Source: Escherichia phage Andreotti. From it: DNA of 64,000 nucleotides. Each line of letters starts with the position of its first letter. Position 1 is the stretch's first letter. This document shows, in pieces, positions 14,122 through 23,015 of the stretch. Where the stretch lies: sequence record MN850610.1. One strand, 5' to 3'. The notes beneath the pieces are model-generated. The model ran no database searches. It was not told the origin of the DNA and was given only the letters and a program-made list of their open reading frames with translations. A program made the position numbers and the translations under genes.

Positions 14122-14633
14122 TGAGAGATTGTGGATTCACACATGAACAGTTAAAGTCTTGGTTAGATTATGACCCCGAAACAGGGGTCTTAACATGGAT
14201 TGGCAGACCCCCACATAGTAGTAGGGTGGTTATTGGAAGCCAAGCCGGAGCAATTAAGCGCACAAGGTCTGGTGTGTATATGCACACACAGATTTTAGGA
14301 TACAGGACAGGTAATCACCGAATTGCTTGGTTCTGGATGACAGGTAAGTGGCCTGATAAACACATTGACCACAAAGATGGAGATGGTTTGAATAACGCTT
14401 GGGACAATCTAAGAGAGGCCACAAAAGAACAGAATATGTCTAATAGGAGACAACCTAGAACATCAAAAAACTTAAAAGGTACAAGTAGAAGCAAGTCTGG
14501 TAAGTGGATAGCCCAGATTAACCATAATGGCAAGACTATACATATAGGAACATACACAACAGAAGAAGAAGCCCATAAAGCTTACTGTGAAGCTGCTGTG
14601 AAACTCCACGGAGAGTTTGCAAAACTATCTTGA
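14118..14633 (+). CDS. HNH endonuclease with AP2-like domain (putative homing endonuclease)
   Basis: YDPETGVLTW motif; HNH region HRIAWFWMTGKWPDKHIDHKDGDGLNNAWDNLRE; start overlaps polymerase stop (ATGA); paralog of 4029-4565. Confidence 0.75.
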   Translation: MMRDCGFTHEQLKSWLDYDPETGVLTWIGRPPHSSRVVIGSQAGAIKRTRSGVYMHTQILGYRTGNHRIAWFWMTGKWPDKHIDHKDGDGLNNAWDNLREATKEQNMSNRRQPRTSKNLKGTSRSKSGKWIAQINHNGKTIHIGTYTTEEEAHKAYCEAAVKLHGEFAKLS

Positions 14634-14684
14634 CAAGGTGCTCATGGAAGAGTACCTTATACAATATCTTATATAGGAGGGCTT

Positions 14685-14894
14685 ATGAGCCACCGTGGAA
14701 GAACCCATGCAGCGATGATGAAAGGTGCTTCAAAGGAAACTATCAAGAACCGTAAGCAGAAGTTGTTTGAGAGAATGAATAGACTCATTGATAACACTTC
14801 CCTGTCTGGTGGTGAGAAAGTTTTCCTTAAAAGTAACCTTAAAAGTATTGCACAAGAACTTGTAGATATTGAATATTGGAGACATCAAAAATGA
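14685..14894 (+). CDS. hypothetical protein (69 aa)
   Basis: ORF track; AGGAGG upstream of ATG. Confidence 0.45.
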   Translation: MSHRGRTHAAMMKGASKETIKNRKQKLFERMNRLIDNTSLSGGEKVFLKSNLKSIAQELVDIEYWRHQK

Positions 14895-15931: not shown

Positions 15932-17009
15932 AGATGGTTCCTTCAACGTCTGGTCATGCGTTGCTGTAGGTGACAAAGTTATCACAACCTACGGTAAAGA
16001 AAATGGCAAGATGATGTTTGAAGAGTACACAGCAGAGCCTAAGAACATCGGTAAAAAGAATGAGCGTAACGCTGAACAGCAAGCTCTCTTTGAAGTTGCT
16101 GCTAAGTATAAAAAGCAAGTTGACCGTAAAGGCTACGCTTACACAAAAGAGTCTGCAAAGAATACTGAGAAAGTAGGTGTACAACTTGCTCATGATGCTG
16201 CAAAGGTTAGTCATGCAAAGTATCTGAAGTTCCCTGCTGATGCTCAACCAAAACTTGATGGTGTACGTTGTAGAATTTCAAGACACTTAAGTATTGGCAG
16301 TGTATTTACAGCATATTCTCGTGAGAATACTGTTTACAAAATCCCTACTGAACTAATACCTGACATTATGGCAATGTTAAGGCTCCACAAAGATGTTGAT
16401 GAATTTGATGGAGAGATTTATGCTCATGGGTGGGACTTAGAAGATATTGTCTCCATGATTAAAAATGAAGACAATCCTGACAGACACTTACTTAAGTTCT
16501 ACTGGTATGATATCTGTGACAGTACTAAAACGTGGCCTGAGCGTAGAGATATTATTGAGACTTCACCATTGAATGACTTTAGAGACGGCTGTAAAGTTGT
16601 CCCTGTTAAATCTCGTCGTGTAAATTCTTGGGAAGAGTTTGATGAAGCTCATGATAAGTGGGTTGAAGCTAAGTTTGAAGGTGCAATGTACCGTTCAATC
16701 TCTGAAGAATCTTTCTACGAGTGTGGTCACCGTTCATACTTCTTGATTAAACACAAGAAGATGCACACTGAAGAGTTTAAAGTGACTGGTGTAAAGACCG
16801 ATAAGCGTGGTCATGGCAAGTTCGTTGTAGAGACTCTTCCTAATGTCTTTGTAGATGTTTCATGGAAAACTACCCATGAGAAGAAGAAGTATCTTGCTGA
16901 ACATCCTGAAGAGTTTATCGGGAAACCTTTAACGGTTCAGTTCCAGAAGATGACTCGTAAGGGGTCTTTACAGTTCCCTGTAGGGCTAGTTATTAGGGAT
17001 TATGAATAA
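15906..17009 (+). CDS. ATP-dependent DNA ligase
   Basis: ligase motif I KLDGVR; size about 367 aa; start set to ATG 15906 (MTILYKQNKDG). Confidence 0.8.
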   Translation: MTILYKQNKDGSFNVWSCVAVGDKVITTYGKENGKMMFEEYTAEPKNIGKKNERNAEQQALFEVAAKYKKQVDRKGYAYTKESAKNTEKVGVQLAHDAAKVSHAKYLKFPADAQPKLDGVRCRISRHLSIGSVFTAYSRENTVYKIPTELIPDIMAMLRLHKDVDEFDGEIYAHGWDLEDIVSMIKNEDNPDRHLLKFYWYDICDSTKTWPERRDIIETSPLNDFRDGCKVVPVKSRRVNSWEEFDEAHDKWVEAKFEGAMYRSISEESFYECGHRSYFLIKHKKMHTEEFKVTGVKTDKRGHGKFVVETLPNVFVDVSWKTTHEKKKYLAEHPEEFIGKPLTVQFQKMTRKGSLQFPVGLVIRDYE

Positions 17010-17012
17010 ACT

Positions 17013-17171
17013 ATGTTCAGTACAGTCATTCTGTTTATACTGGTTGTCTTTGTATTGTCATACGTTGCAAGTAAGCTTTTGGACACATCTTTTGCAATGG
17101 GTGTCTTGTTTACAATCTTTTGTTTCGTGACACATATAGCTATCAGAACTTTTTTTATAAAAAGTTGTTGA
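17013..17171 (+). CDS. possible small hydrophobic protein (52 aa)
   Basis: manual ORF MFSTVILFILVVFVLSYVASKLL...; weak RBS; overlaps predicted promoter, so doubtful. Confidence 0.2.
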   Translation: MFSTVILFILVVFVLSYVASKLLDTSFAMGVLFTIFCFVTHIAIRTFFIKSC

Positions 17172-17195
17172 CATAGAAAATTTGGTGAGTATACT
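17168..17195 (+). promoter_or_regulatory. sigma70-like promoter TTGACA-N16-TATACT
   Basis: consensus -35 TTGACA at 17168-17173, 16-nt spacer, -10 TATACT at 17190-17195; upstream of repeat region and gene 17577. Confidence 0.5.
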
Positions 17196-17225
17196 GAGCA
17201 GCATAAACCAACGGGTACTCACCAA

Positions 17226-17500
17226 CATCACTTAAGAGTCTTTGAAAAGGGTTTTTTAAGTGATGTGGGGCGAGGCTCGGTGAGGTGGGGTAAGGCATAG
17301 TGCGGTGCTGTTTGGTATGGGTAGTTAGTCTCAGCTACATTAAAATGAGACTTACCTTTTTAAAAGGTCTTTAAACAGGGTCTTTTAATAAGGTTGTGTG
17401 ATGTGATGTATGGTGCTGTGGAGTTTGGTTAGGTCCGGTCAGGTATGGTATGGTGATGTGAGGTATGGGTGGATGGTAGTAGCCACGTTAAAAATCTACC
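17226..17500 (+). repeat. GT-rich composite repeat region 1: hairpin c (17226-17265), GT-rich block, hairpin e (17327-17352), conserved 37-mer f (17357-17393), GT-rich block, hairpin h (17475-17500)
   Basis: elements recur in same order at 18637-19029; blocks built from GGTNN pentamers. Confidence 0.75.
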
Positions 17501-17558
17501 AAGTTTCTAAAGAGTCTTCTGTTGAGGGTTCTTTACAAACAACTTAACAATCAACTAA

Positions 17559-18164
<606 letters not shown>

Positions 18165-18166
18165 TT

Positions 18167-18607
18167 ATGAATACAAAAGCATTAGCAGCAAAGTTTAGTT
18201 ACGGTGACACTGTATCACACTCTGAGATGGATACCTTCTTAGGTATTGTGAAGCCAACTTATCAAGGTGACATTGTTAAGTACGAAGATGAAATGAAGGC
18301 TTATGCGCTTACACGTCTAAACCGACTTGAGAAGTTTATTGAGAAGCTTCTTAAAGAAGAGAAGATTTATCTGGTTGCTTCAATGGGTGTTGGTTATCGT
18401 GTGGTTGAGCCTAAGCATCAAGCAACTATTGCAAAACGCAAAATGTCTGGTAAGATTGGTCGTGCTTTAAAGCAAGCCACTCAAGCGATTGAGAATGTGA
18501 ACACTATGGCACTTAGCCATCAAGAACGTTCACGACTAATTGAACAGCAAAACCACTTAGCTGCTATGAAAGCTAACATTAACAAGCAACGTAGAAAACC
18601 TTTCTAA
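18167..18607 (+). CDS. hypothetical protein (146 aa)
   Basis: ORF track; followed by terminator. Confidence 0.6.
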   Translation: MNTKALAAKFSYGDTVSHSEMDTFLGIVKPTYQGDIVKYEDEMKAYALTRLNRLEKFIEKLLKEEKIYLVASMGVGYRVVEPKHQATIAKRKMSGKIGRALKQATQAIENVNTMALSHQERSRLIEQQNHLAAMKANINKQRRKPF

Positions 18608-18616
18608 GTTGACTAG

Positions 18617-18641
18617 GTAGCCTCTTCGGAGGCTCCTTTTT
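18617..18641 (+). terminator. rho-independent terminator
   Basis: AGCCTC-TTCG-GAGGCT hairpin followed by CCTTTTT. Confidence 0.6.
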
Positions 18642-19029
18642 AAAAGGTCTTTAAACAGGGTCTTTTAATAAGGTATTGTTCGGTGTTGTATGGTAGGGTC
18701 TGGTCCGGCAGGGTCTGGTTCGGTCCGGTAGGGTCTGGTATGGGTAGTTAATCGGAGCTACATAAAAATTCGATTACATCACTTAAGAGTCTTTTAAGAG
18801 GGTTTTTAAGTGAGGTGTGGCACGGTAATGCTAGGTAGGGTCAGGTCAGGTCAGGTGAGGTAAGGTGTGGGTAGTTAGTCTCAGCTACATTAAAATGAGA
18901 CTTACCTTTTTAAAAGGTCTTTAAGAGGGTCTTTTAATAAGGTATTGTATGGTGTAGTTTGGTTAGGTATGGTTGGGTGTGGTAAGGTAGGGTATGGAAG
19001 GATGGCAGTAGCCTTATAAAAAATCTGCC
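18637..19029 (+). repeat. GT-rich composite repeat region 2: f (18637-18673), GT block, hairpin e' (18751-18774), hairpin c' (18777-18815), GT block, hairpin e (18877-18902), f (18906-18943), GT block, hairpin h' (19004-19029)
   Basis: direct repeats of region 1 elements; e/e' and h/h' differ by stem-preserving substitutions. Confidence 0.75.
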
Positions 19030-19048
19030 AAATAAGCTATAAAATCTG

Positions 19049-19077
19049 TTGACAAGTCAGGTGTTATAGCTTATTTT
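19049..19077 (+). promoter_or_regulatory. candidate sigma70-like promoter TTGACA-N17-TATTTT
   Basis: consensus -35 TTGACA; weak -10; 45 nt upstream of secreted-protein gene. Confidence 0.3.
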
Positions 19078-19121
19078 TATACTCAATGTAATACAAAATT
19101 TAATATAACTTTGAGGTCATT

Positions 19122-19505
19122 ATGAAAAAGGTTTTATTAGCTGCTGCAATGGTTATGGCAATGAATTTACCAGTTAATGCAACAGAACTTCCAAATGTGG
19201 ACTTATCAGGTGTTCCAGAAGACACTTGCCAGATTGTTAAAGGTGTTGCTCTAGCTAATGGTGAGTTACTTAAACCAATCTCTGAAGAGTCTTTAACAGA
19301 GATGACTGATAAGGTAACTGACTATCAGTATCGTGTTCTTGCAGAGTATTTCCTACAATCTGCAAATATTAAAGAGAAGCACCCTGATGATATTGATGTA
19401 CAGGCTATGCTCAATCATCGTATTCAGTTTAAAGAAGACTTGATGCAAAAAGCTATGTATGGTGTTGAGTATTTCTTAGAAAACAGAAGCTGCACAGGTA
19501 TTTGA
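19122..19505 (+). CDS. secreted/periplasmic protein (127 aa) with Sec-type signal peptide
   Basis: N-terminus MKKVLLAAAMVMAMNLPVNA-TE (positive n-region, hydrophobic core, AxA-like cleavage site). Confidence 0.55.
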   Translation: MKKVLLAAAMVMAMNLPVNATELPNVDLSGVPEDTCQIVKGVALANGELLKPISEESLTEMTDKVTDYQYRVLAEYFLQSANIKEKHPDDIDVQAMLNHRIQFKEDLMQKAMYGVEYFLENRSCTGI

Positions 19506-19506
19506 T

Positions 19507-19719
19507 ATGGCTCTTAAAAAGTTACATCCCAGAAGCGGTTATGGTAAGATAATTGACGATACAGACGGCTTTACAGTCTTTACAGTCATCTGTCAAGATG
19601 ATTCACAGATTGAAAAGGTTCTTGATGATTATCTTAATGATGAACGTGAAAAGGTTAGAGCTACAAACATAGATTCATTGCTTGACACTTCACGCAAACG
19701 GAAGAAGAAAGATGAATGA
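19507..19719 (+). CDS. hypothetical protein (70 aa)
   Basis: ORF track; tightly coupled to flanking ORFs. Confidence 0.4.
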   Translation: MALKKLHPRSGYGKIIDDTDGFTVFTVICQDDSQIEKVLDDYLNDEREKVRATNIDSLLDTSRKRKKKDE

Positions 19720-20011
19720 GGTTTTTGACCCTTATGCCCCACAAGATGATTGGGAGGCTGATAGAGAGGCTGAAATGGAGAGTTATATTTGTCCAATGGA
19801 TGTAGACGAAATGAGAGACTTCGTTGCACATCGTTTTAAGAGAGAGATTAAATCCAGAGGTCTTTCTCAAGAGCAAGTTGCTAAAATTTGTGGTATCTCT
19901 CAGGCTCGTGTATCCAACATAATCCATCTCACTGGTAACGTCTCCCTTGAGTATATGTTGGAAGTATGTGAAAAATTTGGTGTTAATTTCAATTTAAGGT
20001 TGGCAGATTAA
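19712..20011 (+). CDS. helix-turn-helix DNA-binding protein (about 99 aa)
   Basis: HTH-like segment LSQEQVAKICGISQARVSNI; start set to MNEV at 19712. Confidence 0.5.
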   Translation: MNEVFDPYAPQDDWEADREAEMESYICPMDVDEMRDFVAHRFKREIKSRGLSQEQVAKICGISQARVSNIIHLTGNVSLEYMLEVCEKFGVNFNLRLAD

Positions 20012-20012
20012 T

Positions 20013-20372
20013 ATGAAACGTGAAAACATTATCCACTCTGAAAACTTCGCATTAGGCTTTTATGGCGTACCAACTCACCTTGAAAAGTATTATGGTGTGA
20101 AGATTCTCTCCAATCTCATTATGGCTTACAAAGATGGTAAGATTAAGCACACTGAGAAGAAACGTGTCATGGGCTATATGGCTGTAGGTTCAGCAATCTC
20201 GAACATTAAGCTGGAAACCACTAGCAGTCAGATTGTAAAAGACCACTTCATCAAAGAGCTTTACCAGAATCTTGATGGTGTAGATGTTCAGGCTGTTTGG
20301 TTGGATGTTGATGGTCATAATTACACAAGTTTTGTTTTCAAAAACGATGACATTAAGTGTTTGTTCCCATAA
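20013..20372 (+). CDS. hypothetical protein (119 aa)
   Basis: ORF track. Confidence 0.5.
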   Translation: MKRENIIHSENFALGFYGVPTHLEKYYGVKILSNLIMAYKDGKIKHTEKKRVMGYMAVGSAISNIKLETTSSQIVKDHFIKELYQNLDGVDVQAVWLDVDGHNYTSFVFKNDDIKCLFP

Positions 20373-20385
20373 TAGGTGATTAACT

Positions 20386-20901
20386 ATGATTGATATCTTC
20401 TTACAAGATGCTCATGCAGACTTCCTTAAAGAGATGCTTAAAAAGTTTATGGCTTCACAGTATGAGAATGAAGCATCTTTTAAAATAGTTACATGTGGCG
20501 ACGAAGCTGGTTTTGTTGAGATTGAACATGAAGGTACTGGAAAGACTGTTTGTAAGCTACCTGATAGCATGTTCTCTAAAACGTTCTTAACAAAGACTAG
20601 TATAAATGTTAAGCTTGTTCCTCAGATTGAAACATACTCTGGTACAGATTACCCTAAAGGCTTCAAGTCACTGATGAAACACTTCTTAGATGACTTTGTG
20701 AGTAATCTTCTAAGTGAGGTAACAGAAAGCCGTACAATATTAACTGTAGAGAATCTAGGGAACACTATCAGGGTTACTTCTGACCGATATTCTATGAGTC
20801 TCTTCGACTTTGTACCTAAGAACTTTGATGGTATTCTGGATGAAGAAGATGACTGTGTAGACTTTATATTGGTTCTTGAACCAGTTTTTGAGGTTAAATA
20901 G
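20386..20901 (+). CDS. hypothetical acidic protein (171 aa)
   Basis: ORF track. Confidence 0.5.
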   Translation: MIDIFLQDAHADFLKEMLKKFMASQYENEASFKIVTCGDEAGFVEIEHEGTGKTVCKLPDSMFSKTFLTKTSINVKLVPQIETYSGTDYPKGFKSLMKHFLDDFVSNLLSEVTESRTILTVENLGNTIRVTSDRYSMSLFDFVPKNFDGILDEEDDCVDFILVLEPVFEVK

Positions 20902-21162
20902 ATGAAAATTGAACACTGCTATGAGTCTGATGGAACACCTATCCGTTGTCCACATTGTGGGTGTACAGACTTACAAGGCGAGGTAAGTGAAATAGTCAAC
21001 GGTCATATTGCTGAAGAAAGTACCCGATGCACAGTGTGTAATGAAATTATCGCTTTCTGGGCTTATGGTTCATACCAACCCTCTCCACATTTTATCTACC
21101 ATCGTAGTAAAGTTGTGAAGAGTGTCATCAACTGGTTCATTAAGAAAGGGTTTACAAAATGA
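20902..21162 (+). CDS. hypothetical zinc-ribbon-like protein (86 aa)
   Basis: CPHCGC...CTVCN cysteine pairs. Confidence 0.45.
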   Translation: MKIEHCYESDGTPIRCPHCGCTDLQGEVSEIVNGHIAEESTRCTVCNEIIAFWAYGSYQPSPHFIYHRSKVVKSVINWFIKKGFTK

Positions 21163-21704
21163 TTAAACTAATATTTGCAAGTGGTGAAAACGGTGAATTT
21201 GGTACTCCAACTGGTATGCCGTGGCCTCGACATAAACAGGACATGCAAGAGTTTAAGAGACTCACTAAAAATAACTTAGTAGTCATGGGTAATGAGACTT
21301 TTAAGACTCTGGGTAGTAAACCTTTACCAGAACGTTCAAACCTCATCTTAACAAATTCTGTACCATACTTAGGCATAGACTTTGGCAAAGATGATGTAAT
21401 GTATGCTAAAGCCAGTAAAGAGTCATTTGGAGCATTTTTGAAGTATCTTGATAGCTCTATTGATGAAGATGTCTTTGTAATTGGTGGTGCAGGTGTTCTT
21501 GTCGATGCTTTGCCGTATGCTGGTGTAGTTTTCCATACAGTTTTCCATAAAGTCACTGAAGAGGCCACTGTGTATTTACCTTTTGAAAACTTCTTCGATA
21601 AACTGTATGATAACCGTGTATTTGCAAAGGTGCAGTCAAGACCCTCAGATGATGGTAAAGCAACCTTTGAGATTTATGTTCCACAAGTAAAAGGACACTT
21701 TTGA
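21159..21704 (+). CDS. dihydrofolate reductase
   Basis: similar to T4 Frd pattern: MIKLIF..., GMPWPRHKQDMQEFKRLT, VVMGNETFKTLG, VIGGAGVLVDALPYAG; adjacent to thyA. Confidence 0.8.
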   Translation: MIKLIFASGENGEFGTPTGMPWPRHKQDMQEFKRLTKNNLVVMGNETFKTLGSKPLPERSNLILTNSVPYLGIDFGKDDVMYAKASKESFGAFLKYLDSSIDEDVFVIGGAGVLVDALPYAGVVFHTVFHKVTEEATVYLPFENFFDKLYDNRVFAKVQSRPSDDGKATFEIYVPQVKGHF

Positions 21705-21705
21705 T

Positions 21706-22605
21706 ATGTCACAAGCTGATTTGAGTTACAAAAATATCCTGAACCATGTTCTATCTGTTGGTGAACTGCGTACTACACGAACTGGGGATGTTATCTCTGC
21801 ATTTGCTCCACCACAGTTTCGTTTTGATATGCGTACTGGTTTCCCACTCTTAACATCTAAACAGGTGTTTACACGGCAAGTTATTGGGGAAGCTTTATGG
21901 TTCCTGAATGGTGAGAATAAACTTGGCGAACTCCGTTACCGTACTTGGGGTGAAAATGATGGGGAACGCTGGACTATCTGGTCAGATGATTTTAAACGCT
22001 GGTTAAGCTCTAACTATTCTTCTGAGCAAGACTGGTTAGAAGATGCAGGTGGGAGAATCTACGGGGTTCAGTGGAGAAACTTTGAAGGTCATAACGGTTG
22101 TGTTGTAGACCAGTTAGAGACCTTAGTAACGAAGATGAAAGGTGATATCACAGACCGTTACATGCTTGTTAATGCTTGGAATGCAGCAGATATTGCAGCT
22201 AACTCAATGGCTTTAGCACCTTGTCATGTTCTGTTTCAGATTTATATCACTAACGAAGGTGAGGTTGACTTACAATGGTATCAACGTTCTGTAGACACCT
22301 TTTTAGGTCTTCCATTTAACATTGCATCTTATGGTTTTATTCTGGAAGTACTTTGCAAGATGACTGGATATACTCCACGGTACTTGATAGGTGTCTTTGG
22401 GGATACTCAGATTTATCAGAACCATATGAAGCAGGTTTATGAACTGATGAACAATGAAGAGTTCCATGCACCAACTTTTGAGATTGGTCTACAACTTAAT
22501 ACTTTAAGTGACCTGAAACATCTTACTGCAAGTGACTTTATCGGTGGAATTAGTAACTACCAACATGCAGGAAAGATTGAAGCACCTTTGTCAGTAGGTA
22601 AGTAG
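21706..22605 (+). CDS. thyA: thymidylate synthase
   Basis: 299 aa; ThyA-like blocks (RTGDVISAFAPPQFRFDMRTGFPLLTSKQVF, LAPCHVLFQ active-site Cys context); coupled to DHFR. Confidence 0.9.
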   Translation: MSQADLSYKNILNHVLSVGELRTTRTGDVISAFAPPQFRFDMRTGFPLLTSKQVFTRQVIGEALWFLNGENKLGELRYRTWGENDGERWTIWSDDFKRWLSSNYSSEQDWLEDAGGRIYGVQWRNFEGHNGCVVDQLETLVTKMKGDITDRYMLVNAWNAADIAANSMALAPCHVLFQIYITNEGEVDLQWYQRSVDTFLGLPFNIASYGFILEVLCKMTGYTPRYLIGVFGDTQIYQNHMKQVYELMNNEEFHAPTFEIGLQLNTLSDLKHLTASDFIGGISNYQHAGKIEAPLSVGK

Positions 22606-22613
22606 AAACAAAA

Positions 22614-22637
22614 AAGGCTCCCGTAAAAAGGAGCCTT
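22614..22637. terminator. bidirectional rho-independent terminator between convergent thyA and tail-module genes
   Basis: perfect 8-bp stem AAGGCTCC / GGAGCCTT, loop CGTAAAAA, A-run before and T-run after. Confidence 0.65.
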
Positions 22638-22643
22638 AAAATT

Positions 22644-23015
22644 TTATTTTTCAGTATTCTTTGTGTTCTTCTCAGTAATAGCTTGGAGGGCTGATACTGA
22701 TTGAGCCAGATTATTTACACTGTCAGAGAATTTATCAAGAGTTTTGGTAAGTTTTGCGTTTTCACCCTTAACATTCTCTAACTGAACTTTCTGGTTCTCC
22801 ATCCCTAGCTGAATCAGTCTCATGTCAGACTGTAAATCACGAATAGCTGAATAGTTACTTTTGGAATAATTATCTAGCTGCTGTAACTTTGTTGTGACAG
22901 ACACTTCTTGCTTACCACTTGAAACTTGCATAGTGGTATACATCCCAATAACACTAAAAATACCAACAACAATTACACCAATATTGTTTTTAAAAGCTTC
23001 CTCTAGCCACTTCAT
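22644..23015 (-). CDS. membrane-anchored coiled-coil protein (123 aa)
   Basis: N-terminal hydrophobic helix IGVIVVGIFSVIGMYTT followed by coiled-coil-like sequence. Confidence 0.5.
   Translation of the reverse strand: MKWLEEAFKNNIGVIVVGIFSVIGMYTTMQVSSGKQEVSVTTKLQQLDNYSKSNYSAIRDLQSDMRLIQLGMENQKVQLENVKGENAKLTKTLDKFSDSVNNLAQSVSALQAITEKNTKNTEK

Follow-up and report, generated by a model that had tools for sequence, protein, structure and literature searches.

A predicted Sec-exported three-helix protein at the head of a putative replication and nucleotide-metabolism operon in Felix O1-type phages

The locus and the gene family

The DNA analyzed here is a stretch of 64,000 nucleotides (nt) from Escherichia phage Andreotti (MN850610.1), referred to below as the window. 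Its gene at 19122–19505 on the plus strand encodes a protein of 127 amino acids (aa) starting MKKVLLAAAMVMAMNLPVNA, the ortholog of ORF87 (Felix01p159) of phage Felix O1. The protein carries a well-supported export signal of the Sec type, and its mature part is predicted to form three helices; a conserved promoter of the sigma-70 type precedes the gene. An original prediction, made from the letters of the sequence, had placed an open reading frame (ORF) here, and both its coordinates and its quoted protein sequences are exact. The features of the gene are as follows.

19122..19505, + strand: coding sequence of the 127-aa precursor, ortholog of Felix O1 ORF87 / Felix01p159, phrog_4332 (supported by substitution ratios within genera)
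19122..19181, + strand: predicted Sec-type signal peptide, residues 1–20, composed of MKK, VLLAAAMVMAMNL and PVNA, with the predicted signal peptidase I cut after A20 (rule-based analysis and comparison)
19182..19502, + strand: predicted mature acidic protein of 107 aa, isoelectric point 4.5, three helices, invariant C36 and C124 (AlphaFold2 and alignment)
19113..19116, + strand: Shine-Dalgarno sequence GAGG, 5 nt 5′ of the ATG (read directly)

The window belongs to a Felixounavirus, a Felix O1-like myovirus of Escherichia, Salmonella and Shigella. The 1.8 kb around 19122–19505 exhibits 93–96% identity to many Felixounavirus genomes. The gene order in the window, namely DNA polymerase, ligase, the 19122–19505 gene, a helix-turn-helix regulator, dihydrofolate reductase and thymidylate synthase, agrees with that of the annotated records. 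The protein is 94–100% identical to its Felixounavirus orthologs, which occupy the same genome position. Felix01p159 is also 127 aa long and had "no homologs" in 2010. A scan of the PHROG families returned phrog_4332 alone, with a full-length match (E 3e-66); this family has no functional annotation, and the records inspected say "hypothetical protein". Scans against Pfam, NCBIfam and PADLOC gave nothing meaningful, only sub-threshold matches to Smoothelin, to fimbrial StaA (driven by the signal peptide) and to PDC-M61B. The sole Pfam match is spurious (E 0.19), and the PADLOC families yielded a single unconvincing one (E 0.0065, 13 bits). No relevant match came from PDB sequences, whether the query was the single protein or the family profile.

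A GGAG/GAGG-type motif precedes the ATG in nine aligned loci. In the Shigella phage ESh22 (L007), the deposited ortholog at 2369–2824 starts 25 codons too early, giving 151 aa. The added N-terminal codons overlap with the promoter; it is the MKK codon at 2444 that is the conserved start.

The distribution of the family is narrow. By tblastn the ortholog occurs in 258 phage records, 214 of them at 90% identity or more (Felixounavirus), and those of Suspvirus and Mooglevirus are at 30–36%. A phmmer search of 1.84 billion representative proteins retrieved the near-identical Felixounavirus cluster, one truncated fragment, and others at 31–34% identity. A profile search of 5.8 billion proteins gave 33 clusters, each of 116–127 aa and covering 91–100% of the query; one spurious match of 1571 aa was disregarded in these exhaustive searches. 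All 33 clusters are restricted to phages of the Felix O1 type, namely Ounavirinae and metagenomic phages closely related to them. Because the exhaustive searches returned Felix O1-type members only, the family is, as far as sequence comparison reaches, small, closed and limited to this lineage. The most divergent member, P0008, is encoded by a metagenomic phage (L011) with the same order from polymerase through thymidylate synthase to tail fibre.

The ratio of non-synonymous to synonymous substitution rates (dN/dS) is 0.06–0.24 within genera, so that synonymous changes greatly exceed non-synonymous ones, and the length, position and key residues of the protein are preserved across lineages. 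The comparison indicates that 19122–19505 is a real gene under purifying selection. The protein is nearly invariant inside a genus. Between genera it diverges more than any other gene of its surroundings, with 30–36% identity, versus 50–77% for four neighbours and 85–89% for the ligase; among the neighbours, the 171-aa protein alone displays a similar divergence (33–42%).

The export signal and the mature protein

The N-terminus consists of MKK (charge +2) followed by an uncharged run of 18 residues with a 13-residue hydrophobic core; it also has a helix-breaking proline and one site of the (−3, −1) type, VNA|TE. The 127-aa protein thus has the n-, h- and c-regions of a Sec/signal peptidase I precursor, with cleavage predicted, and rule-based analysis found no second hydrophobic segment in it. 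Under a simple rule applied to 144 ORFs of the window, a classical Sec-type N-terminus was found in this protein only. The N-terminal part also weakly matches a fimbrial subunit precursor, far under the cut-off.

The comparison of the 33 clusters is more telling than the single sequence. M1, K2, K3 and the alanine at −1 are invariant, position −3 is always V, A, T or S, and the core is 11–13 residues long. The Felix-type sequences have a proline at −4. The core itself is swapped wholesale among clusters, for instance VLLAAAMVMAMNL, LMVGVILATLSF, IALCLFAALSF and LLVAALIFASF. The core sequences are replaced while the architecture is kept; therefore selection appears to act on the property and not on the sequence. 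Since this architecture is invariant in 33 of 33 clusters despite the divergence of the mature parts (about 30–41% identity between lineages), the export signal of the ORF87 family is well supported by sequence comparison. The Sec-type signal peptide claimed in the original prediction is in this way upheld, its cleavage being predicted. Cleavage after A20 and a periplasmic location of the product may be deduced from the same residues.

The Shigella phage vB_SflM_004 carries a chimeric member, P0014, in which residues 1–20 are a Felix-type signal peptide and the mature chain is of the Mooglevirus type. The recombination joint coincides exactly with the border of signal peptide and mature chain.

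The mature chain would be about 12.2 kDa. For the original prediction, structure prediction of the mature protein was one way to check it. AlphaFold2, run with the 33-sequence alignment, gave a confident three-helix model (predicted local distance difference test, pLDDT, 95.3; predicted template modelling score, pTM, 0.85), with helices at mature residues 11–25, 35–66 and 73–101, but the model has no informative structural relative. The precursor model contains the same helices, with residues 1–18 at low confidence and the signal peptide disordered. Only two cysteines never vary, C36, which lies in the first helix, and C124, close to the C-terminus; the further invariant residues in the 33 clusters are G47, E48, K51, D63, Y76, G114 and G126. 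Because these two cysteines are invariant in a predicted periplasmic protein, they probably form a C36–C124 disulfide.

Foldseek searches of the PDB with the precursor and mature models reached E 0.68 at best, and the 50 matches listed had TM-scores no higher than 0.43, all of them generic three-helix bundles. Against BFVD, the precursor model matched a member of its own family (Shigella phage Sf13) and generic helical bundles only. Matches outside the family, in both the PDB and the predicted viral structures, had E above 0.5 and TM below 0.45. Foldseek likewise found no fold match to T4 Spackle, T4 RI, CpxP/Spy-like proteins or lysozyme inhibitors. As modelled, the three-helix protein therefore has no relative, by structure or by sequence, beyond the family itself.

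The promoter, its hairpin and the operon

The features around the start of the gene and along the rest of the proposed operon are listed here.

19049..19054, + strand: −35 hexamer TTGACA of the putative promoter P_A (read directly; retained in the distant L011)
19072..19077, + strand: −10 hexamer TATTTT of P_A, also the start of the T-run 3′ of the hairpin (read directly; L011)
19030..19076, + strand: inverted repeat with 19-nt arms, 19030–19048 and 19058–19076, and a 9-nt loop holding the −35 hexamer, then TTTTTATAC (RNA folding)
19090..19107, + strand: AT-rich near-palindrome AATACAAAATTTAATATA in the predicted 5′ untranslated region (lineage comparison)
18619..18641, + strand: predicted intrinsic terminator of the upstream gene pair, AGCCTCTTCGGAGGCT then a T-run (terminator scan)
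19507..22605, + strand: remaining cistrons of the putative operon, encoding a 70-aa protein, a Cro/C1-type helix-turn-helix regulator (19712–20011), a 119-aa protein, a 171-aa protein, an 86-aa CxxC protein, dihydrofolate reductase and thymidylate synthase (ORFs and annotation)
22614..22637, no strand: predicted bidirectional terminator at the operon end (scan; annotated in AYO145A, and as t79/t80 in Felix O1)

The promoter-like site TTGACA-N17-TATTTT that had been claimed before the gene is present at 19049–19077, and its positions are exact. It has a 17-nt spacer and 10 of 12 consensus matches, and ends 45 nt before the ATG. The window contains 39 sites with at least 10 of 12 matches, versus 25.1 ± 4.7 in dinucleotide shuffles, which gives a chance expectation of about 0.02, in the correct orientation, within 100 nt upstream of a gene. 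By itself the match would be weak evidence; conservation gives it weight. In 183 of 230 phage genomes, the 106 nt of 19020–19125 show an identity of 99% or more. The distant L011 retains AAAATCTG-TTGACA, the 17-nt spacer and TATTTT-TATAC while the spacer sequence differs, and in its hairpin loop TTGACA is kept and the other three bases are changed. SUSP2 (Suspvirus) and Sf17 (Mooglevirus) have the same promoter DNA before coding sequences that are 32–35% identical to 19122–19505. Michonne, ESh22 and EP1 are without P_A; in them GTTGTTGACA-N16-TATACT precedes the ortholog, with conserved hexamers and variable spacers. The record of AYO145A (KR014248) already annotates the P_A site as a promoter. 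Taken together, the comparisons argue that P_A is a conserved promoter of the sigma-70 type. An alternative −10, TATACT at 19078–19083, was rejected, as the spacer would have to be 23 nt, and a divergent minus-strand promoter on the palindrome would have no usable −10.

Between SUSP2 or Sf17 and the window, DNA similarity collapses about 20–30 nt 5′ of the ATG. Because similarity breaks near the ATG in these two phages, or at the signal/mature boundary in vB_SflM_004, the region of the promoter and gene start is interpreted as a recombination joint.

The original prediction regarded the promoter as the gene's own. A conserved sigma-70-type site does precede the gene, but it appears to serve eight genes and is not private. 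No terminator or gap follows the gene, and the cistrons abut or overlap up to thymidylate synthase, so that P_A is best regarded as an operon promoter. By sequence, 19122–19505 is the first cistron of an eight-gene operon with replication and nucleotide-metabolism genes that ends at thymidylate synthase. The operon order is the same in SUSP2, Michonne, Sf17, ESh22 and the metagenomic L011. Since the intrinsic terminator at 18619 would end transcription of the upstream gene pair, a new promoter is needed downstream of it.

The −35 hexamer is central in the inverted repeat, the arms of which are complementary at 17 of 19 positions. The RNA fold has −25 kcal/mol and a z of −5.1, with none of 200 shuffles as good; its stem is 13 + 5 bp, then UUUUUAUAC. 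The stem is AU-rich and the loop 9 nt long, and the terminator consensus scan did not call this hairpin. In L011 the stem is retained, with an A-U to G-C double change in the outer five pairs and two single changes that give G-U pairs; such pairs are easier to reconcile with an RNA structure than with an operator in DNA. We infer that the hairpin and T-run are a terminator-like element for upstream transcripts, with the T-run reused as the −10. The unusual TATTTT may be explained in this manner, because the T-run of the hairpin would double as the −10. Rfam found no family on 16900–19300.

A related AT-rich motif lies between the −10 and the Shine-Dalgarno sequence in every lineage examined, whichever promoter type it has. 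The near-palindrome at 19090–19107 could be a candidate operator of the operon's Cro/C1-type regulator, or a candidate translational element. A second copy at 14658–14675 stands directly before another small ORF; the two matches compare with 0.39 expected, which is statistically weak. There, within 14630–14688, TTGACA is followed 22 nt later by TATACAATATCTTATATAGGAGG, a near-palindrome of the same type, and then by an ATG at 14686. The two sites may represent a shared operator or translational element of a plus-strand unit.

Another near-consensus promoter, GTTGTTGACA-N16-TATACT with 11 of 12 matches, lies at 17168–17195 directly after the ligase gene and is found in 10 of 10 loci. It too is overlapped by a hairpin, with the 5′ arm in the spacer and the 3′ arm about 20–35 nt downstream. 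The arms differ among the Felix-type phages, Michonne, ESh22 and EP1, yet remain complementary. Because the 5′ arm would be absent from transcripts starting there, this hairpin could form only in read-through RNA or in DNA.

Between ligase and the 19122–19505 gene, a composite repeat block occurs in two or three copies, at 17225–17500 and 18635–19003. In each block, G/T-rich tracts follow AT-rich hairpins (ACATCACTTAA...TTAAGTGATGT and CCTTTTTAAAAG...CTTTTAATAAGG). The tracts are strictly 5-nt periodic (GGTCT GGTCC GGCAG GGTCT GGTTC ...; Tandem Repeats Finder periods of 5, 10, 15 and 20), and Rfam gave no match for the blocks. Felix O1 has a single block between its ligase gene and ORF87, while Michonne, ESh22, EP1 and L011 have none. 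A replication origin, a protein-binding RNA leader and G-quadruplex-prone DNA are candidates for their role. The duplicated blocks enclose a gene pair at 17562–18607 (200 and 146 aa; phrog_4652 and phrog_5926). Its proteins are 97–99% identical across Felixounavirus, SUSP2 and Sf17, whereas those of the neighbouring genes are 32–89% identical, and the pair is missing from Felix O1, Michonne, ESh22 and EP1. By these sequence comparisons it looks like a recently exchanged module inserted in the repeat block. The 146-aa gene of the pair scored 'Semi-Fit' in the SUSP1 knockdown described in the next section.

Within the operon, the 86-aa ORF at 20902–21162, with a CxxC...CxxC pattern, has sub-threshold matches to the ECs_2282-type zinc-binding (E 0.0015) and Lar restriction-alleviation (E 0.0048) families, and may encode a small anti-restriction or zinc-ribbon protein. 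Beyond the operon, 22644–23015 on the minus strand encodes a 123-aa protein that has a single transmembrane segment at its N-terminus and is predicted to contain a long coiled-coil. T4 PseT.3 is regarded as an i-spanin. The ortholog of the 22644–23015 protein is ORF79, PseT.3-like, in the Felix O1 paper and a 'putative holin' in the SUSP1 record; the latter label may be wrong.

Proposed function and comparison with known systems

Published data on the orthologs concern expression and requirement. Felix O1 ORF87 was positive by reverse transcription PCR (RT-PCR), its signal was maximal at 25 min, and it fell into one class with ligase (ORF88), polymerase (ORF96) and thymidylate synthase (ORF80) (PMC3185647). 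In a genome-wide dCas13d knockdown of the Suspvirus SUSP1, the ortholog AVU07_agp037, which is mapped to Felix01p159 and phrog_4332, had a fitness of −0.76 and was scored 'Not Fit' (PMC11879866 supplement). By this score, the SUSP1 ortholog is dispensable on a K-12-derived laboratory strain of E. coli. Our literature search found no Felixounavirus transcriptome and no report of superinfection exclusion by Felix O1.

The following sequence of events would fit the data best. Host sigma-70 RNA polymerase would transcribe the eight-gene operon from 19049–19077, where the hairpin and T-run around P_A probably halt the upstream transcripts and the T-run serves as the −10. The precursor would be exported by the host Sec system and cut by signal peptidase I after Ala20, yielding a soluble, acidic, three-helix periplasmic protein of 107 residues, probably with the C36–C124 disulfide. 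The product would be an accessory factor, unneeded for growth on the laboratory host. The mature protein might bind a protein exposed to the periplasm and so alter events at the envelope of the already infected cell. The likeliest target would be a component of incoming related phages, leading to superinfection exclusion like that of T4 Spackle, and not a conserved host protein. A phage-encoded, genus-specific partner is favoured over a conserved host protein because the divergence between genera is strong, the protein is nearly invariant within a genus, and the Enterobacteriaceae hosts are closely related. The exclusion guess is drawn from the Spackle-like anatomy together with this pattern of divergence. 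The explanation as a whole, an exported three-helix protein, an operon promoter and an accessory role of the exclusion type, is offered tentatively, as quite possible though short of probable; exclusion of phage by phage as the function is by itself doubtful.

Several points weigh against this proposal. An arms race still under way inside a genus is disfavoured by how strongly the protein is conserved there. An exclusion factor would be expected to peak earlier than the 25 min seen by RT-PCR, although the assay is coarse. No lysozyme or peptidoglycan-hydrolase domain was found in the hub, spike, tape-measure and baseplate ORFs of the window, and because of this a literal Spackle mechanism is without a visible target; a hydrolase may be encoded elsewhere in the genome. 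In the searches above, the protein resembled neither Spackle nor RI nor any solved structure in sequence or fold. C36 and C124 could form intermolecular bonds instead, and the covariation in the hairpin rests on two sequence variants only.

Two alternatives question the anatomy itself. The N-terminus might stay uncleaved, giving a type II protein anchored in the inner membrane, or the protein might not be exported; the AlphaFold model, uninformative on residues 1–18, leaves room for this. We regard it as highly improbable, given a core of 11–13 residues, too short for a stable transmembrane helix, an alanine at −1 that never varies and a small or aliphatic residue at −3 in the 33 clusters, the helix-breaking proline at −4 in Felix-type sequences, and two invariant cysteines that suit an oxidising compartment. 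As for P_A, TTGACA-N17-TATTTT might be inactive as a promoter and form only a terminator or processing hairpin, the gene being read through from upstream promoters such as 17168–17195. The hexamers do lie within a strong hairpin and T-run, the −10 matches just four of six positions, and sites with 9 of 12 matches occur at chance frequency in the AT-rich DNA of the window. Yet L011 keeps TTGACA in the loop, the 17-nt spacing and TATTTT while the adjacent loop bases change, lineages without P_A have another near-consensus promoter at the same place, and the downstream genes for dihydrofolate reductase and thymidylate synthase, which are essential, would go untranscribed behind the 18619 terminator and the hairpin. 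An inactive P_A is thus improbable.

The other alternatives accept export and differ in the target. An exported protein could, in line with the original prediction, antagonise a component of the host envelope, such as a protease of the periplasm, a sensor of envelope stress or the periplasmic portion of an anti-phage system bound to the membrane, and matter only on those natural hosts that carry the component. The predicted periplasmic location agrees with this, and so does the dispensability of the SUSP1 ortholog on a K-12-derived strain, as expected of a protein needed on particular hosts only. We nevertheless consider it unlikely: core periplasmic proteins are highly conserved in E. coli, Salmonella, Shigella and Citrobacter, while this protein is 30–36% identical between phage genera that share hosts; the PADLOC match is unconvincing, and no co-varying host feature is known. 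Alternatively, the protein could time lysis like the T4 antiholin RI, by binding the periplasmic domain of a phage lysis protein and delaying lysis. It is predicted to be a small helical periplasmic phage protein, its knockdown would leave plating unreduced, no holin has been identified beside the Felix O1 lysin, and the phages carry rIIA/rIIB (PMC4837284). Against an antiholin stand the short cleavable signal with an invariant AxA site in place of a signal-anchor-release domain, the failure to match RI structures in the PDB, and a position in a replication and nucleotide-metabolism operon away from the lysis genes. Moreover, a comparison of the window with SUSP1 gives 91% identity for the PseT.3-like 22644–23015 protein, versus 32% for the 127-aa protein, showing no co-divergence. 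We therefore rate this role as quite unlikely, and return to an accessory factor of the exclusion type as the preferred explanation.

Three further classes were considered and rejected. A lipoprotein, as are the T5 Llp and Cor exclusion proteins, would need a lipobox ([LVI][ASTVI][GAS]C), which is absent from all six representative sequences. The lysozyme inhibitors Ivy, MliC/PliC and PliG as well as PliI gave no Pfam match, and the model is all-helical and not beta-rich. An Rz-type i-spanin is contradicted by the short, cleavable signal, by a following 70-aa gene that lacks both a signal and a lipobox, and by an operon of replication and nucleotide-metabolism genes in place of a lysis cassette.

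Public annotations already list the gene (as "hypothetical protein") and the promoter-like site (as "promoter"). As far as the literature searches reached, earlier work appears not to describe the cysteine pair that never varies, the confident new three-helix model, the assignment to an operon or the arrangement of a promoter within a hairpin; the same appears true of the conserved export signal, as no mention of a signal peptide in the ORF87 family was found in the literature. The result is a sound upgrade of the annotation from "hypothetical protein" and a reasonable experimental lead, and no new mechanism or new kind of system. A larger claim would be that a periplasmic effector of new fold in Felix O1-type phages blocks competing phages or disarms an envelope defence through a target unlike that of known exclusion proteins, as no tail lysozyme was found, and that its operon is run by a compact element in which a terminator hairpin, a sigma-70 promoter and a palindrome in the 5′ untranslated region overlap, the palindrome possibly being the operator for the helix-turn-helix regulator; we think this unlikely.

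Felix O1-type phages are widely used in typing, biocontrol and therapy of Salmonella and E. coli, and most of their genes are functionally unassigned. Outside the cytoplasm, phages control superinfection, lysis timing and receptor availability. The only classical export signal in the window marks this protein for a predicted action there. If the protein does exclude phages or counter an envelope defence, this would bear on how phage cocktails are designed and account for some differences in host range. The confident three-helix model without a relative makes it an easy target for structural and binding studies.

Among the known systems, T4 Spackle (gp61.3) is the closest in anatomy. It is an early gene product with a cleaved periplasmic localisation signal, a mature helical bundle of 75 aa and a Cys29–Cys81 pair (PMC7677548). 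Both proteins come from a virulent myovirus and have an N-terminal periplasmic signal, with cleavage predicted for the present one. Both mature chains are small and all-helical (75 aa in Spackle, 107 aa here, as modelled), with one cysteine in the first helix and one near the C-terminus (Cys29 and Cys81; C36 and C124). Both would be transcribed by the host polymerase ahead of the late genes. Spackle binds a basic patch, suggesting a negatively charged Spackle surface, and the product of the 127-aa gene is acidic. The two also differ. There is no sequence similarity by PDB searches with the single protein and the profile (E up to 10) or by the PHROG scan. Spackle has five helices against three here, with no fold match among the Foldseek matches listed. 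Spackle targets a tail-spike lysozyme, and no such domain was detected in the tail genes of the window.

The likeness to T4 RI is that of a small helical periplasmic protein from a virulent myovirus with rII genes that is dispensable for plating. T4 RI uses an uncleaved signal-anchor-release domain, whereas the present protein has a classical AxA cleavage site; the two share no sequence or fold match, and their gene contexts differ. The promoter region, in turn, resembles the overlapping terminator-promoter elements of phage early regions, in which a hairpin and T-run overlap a sigma-70 promoter that restarts the next unit. It differs from these in that the −35 forms the loop of the hairpin and the T-run is the −10, both activities being predicted.

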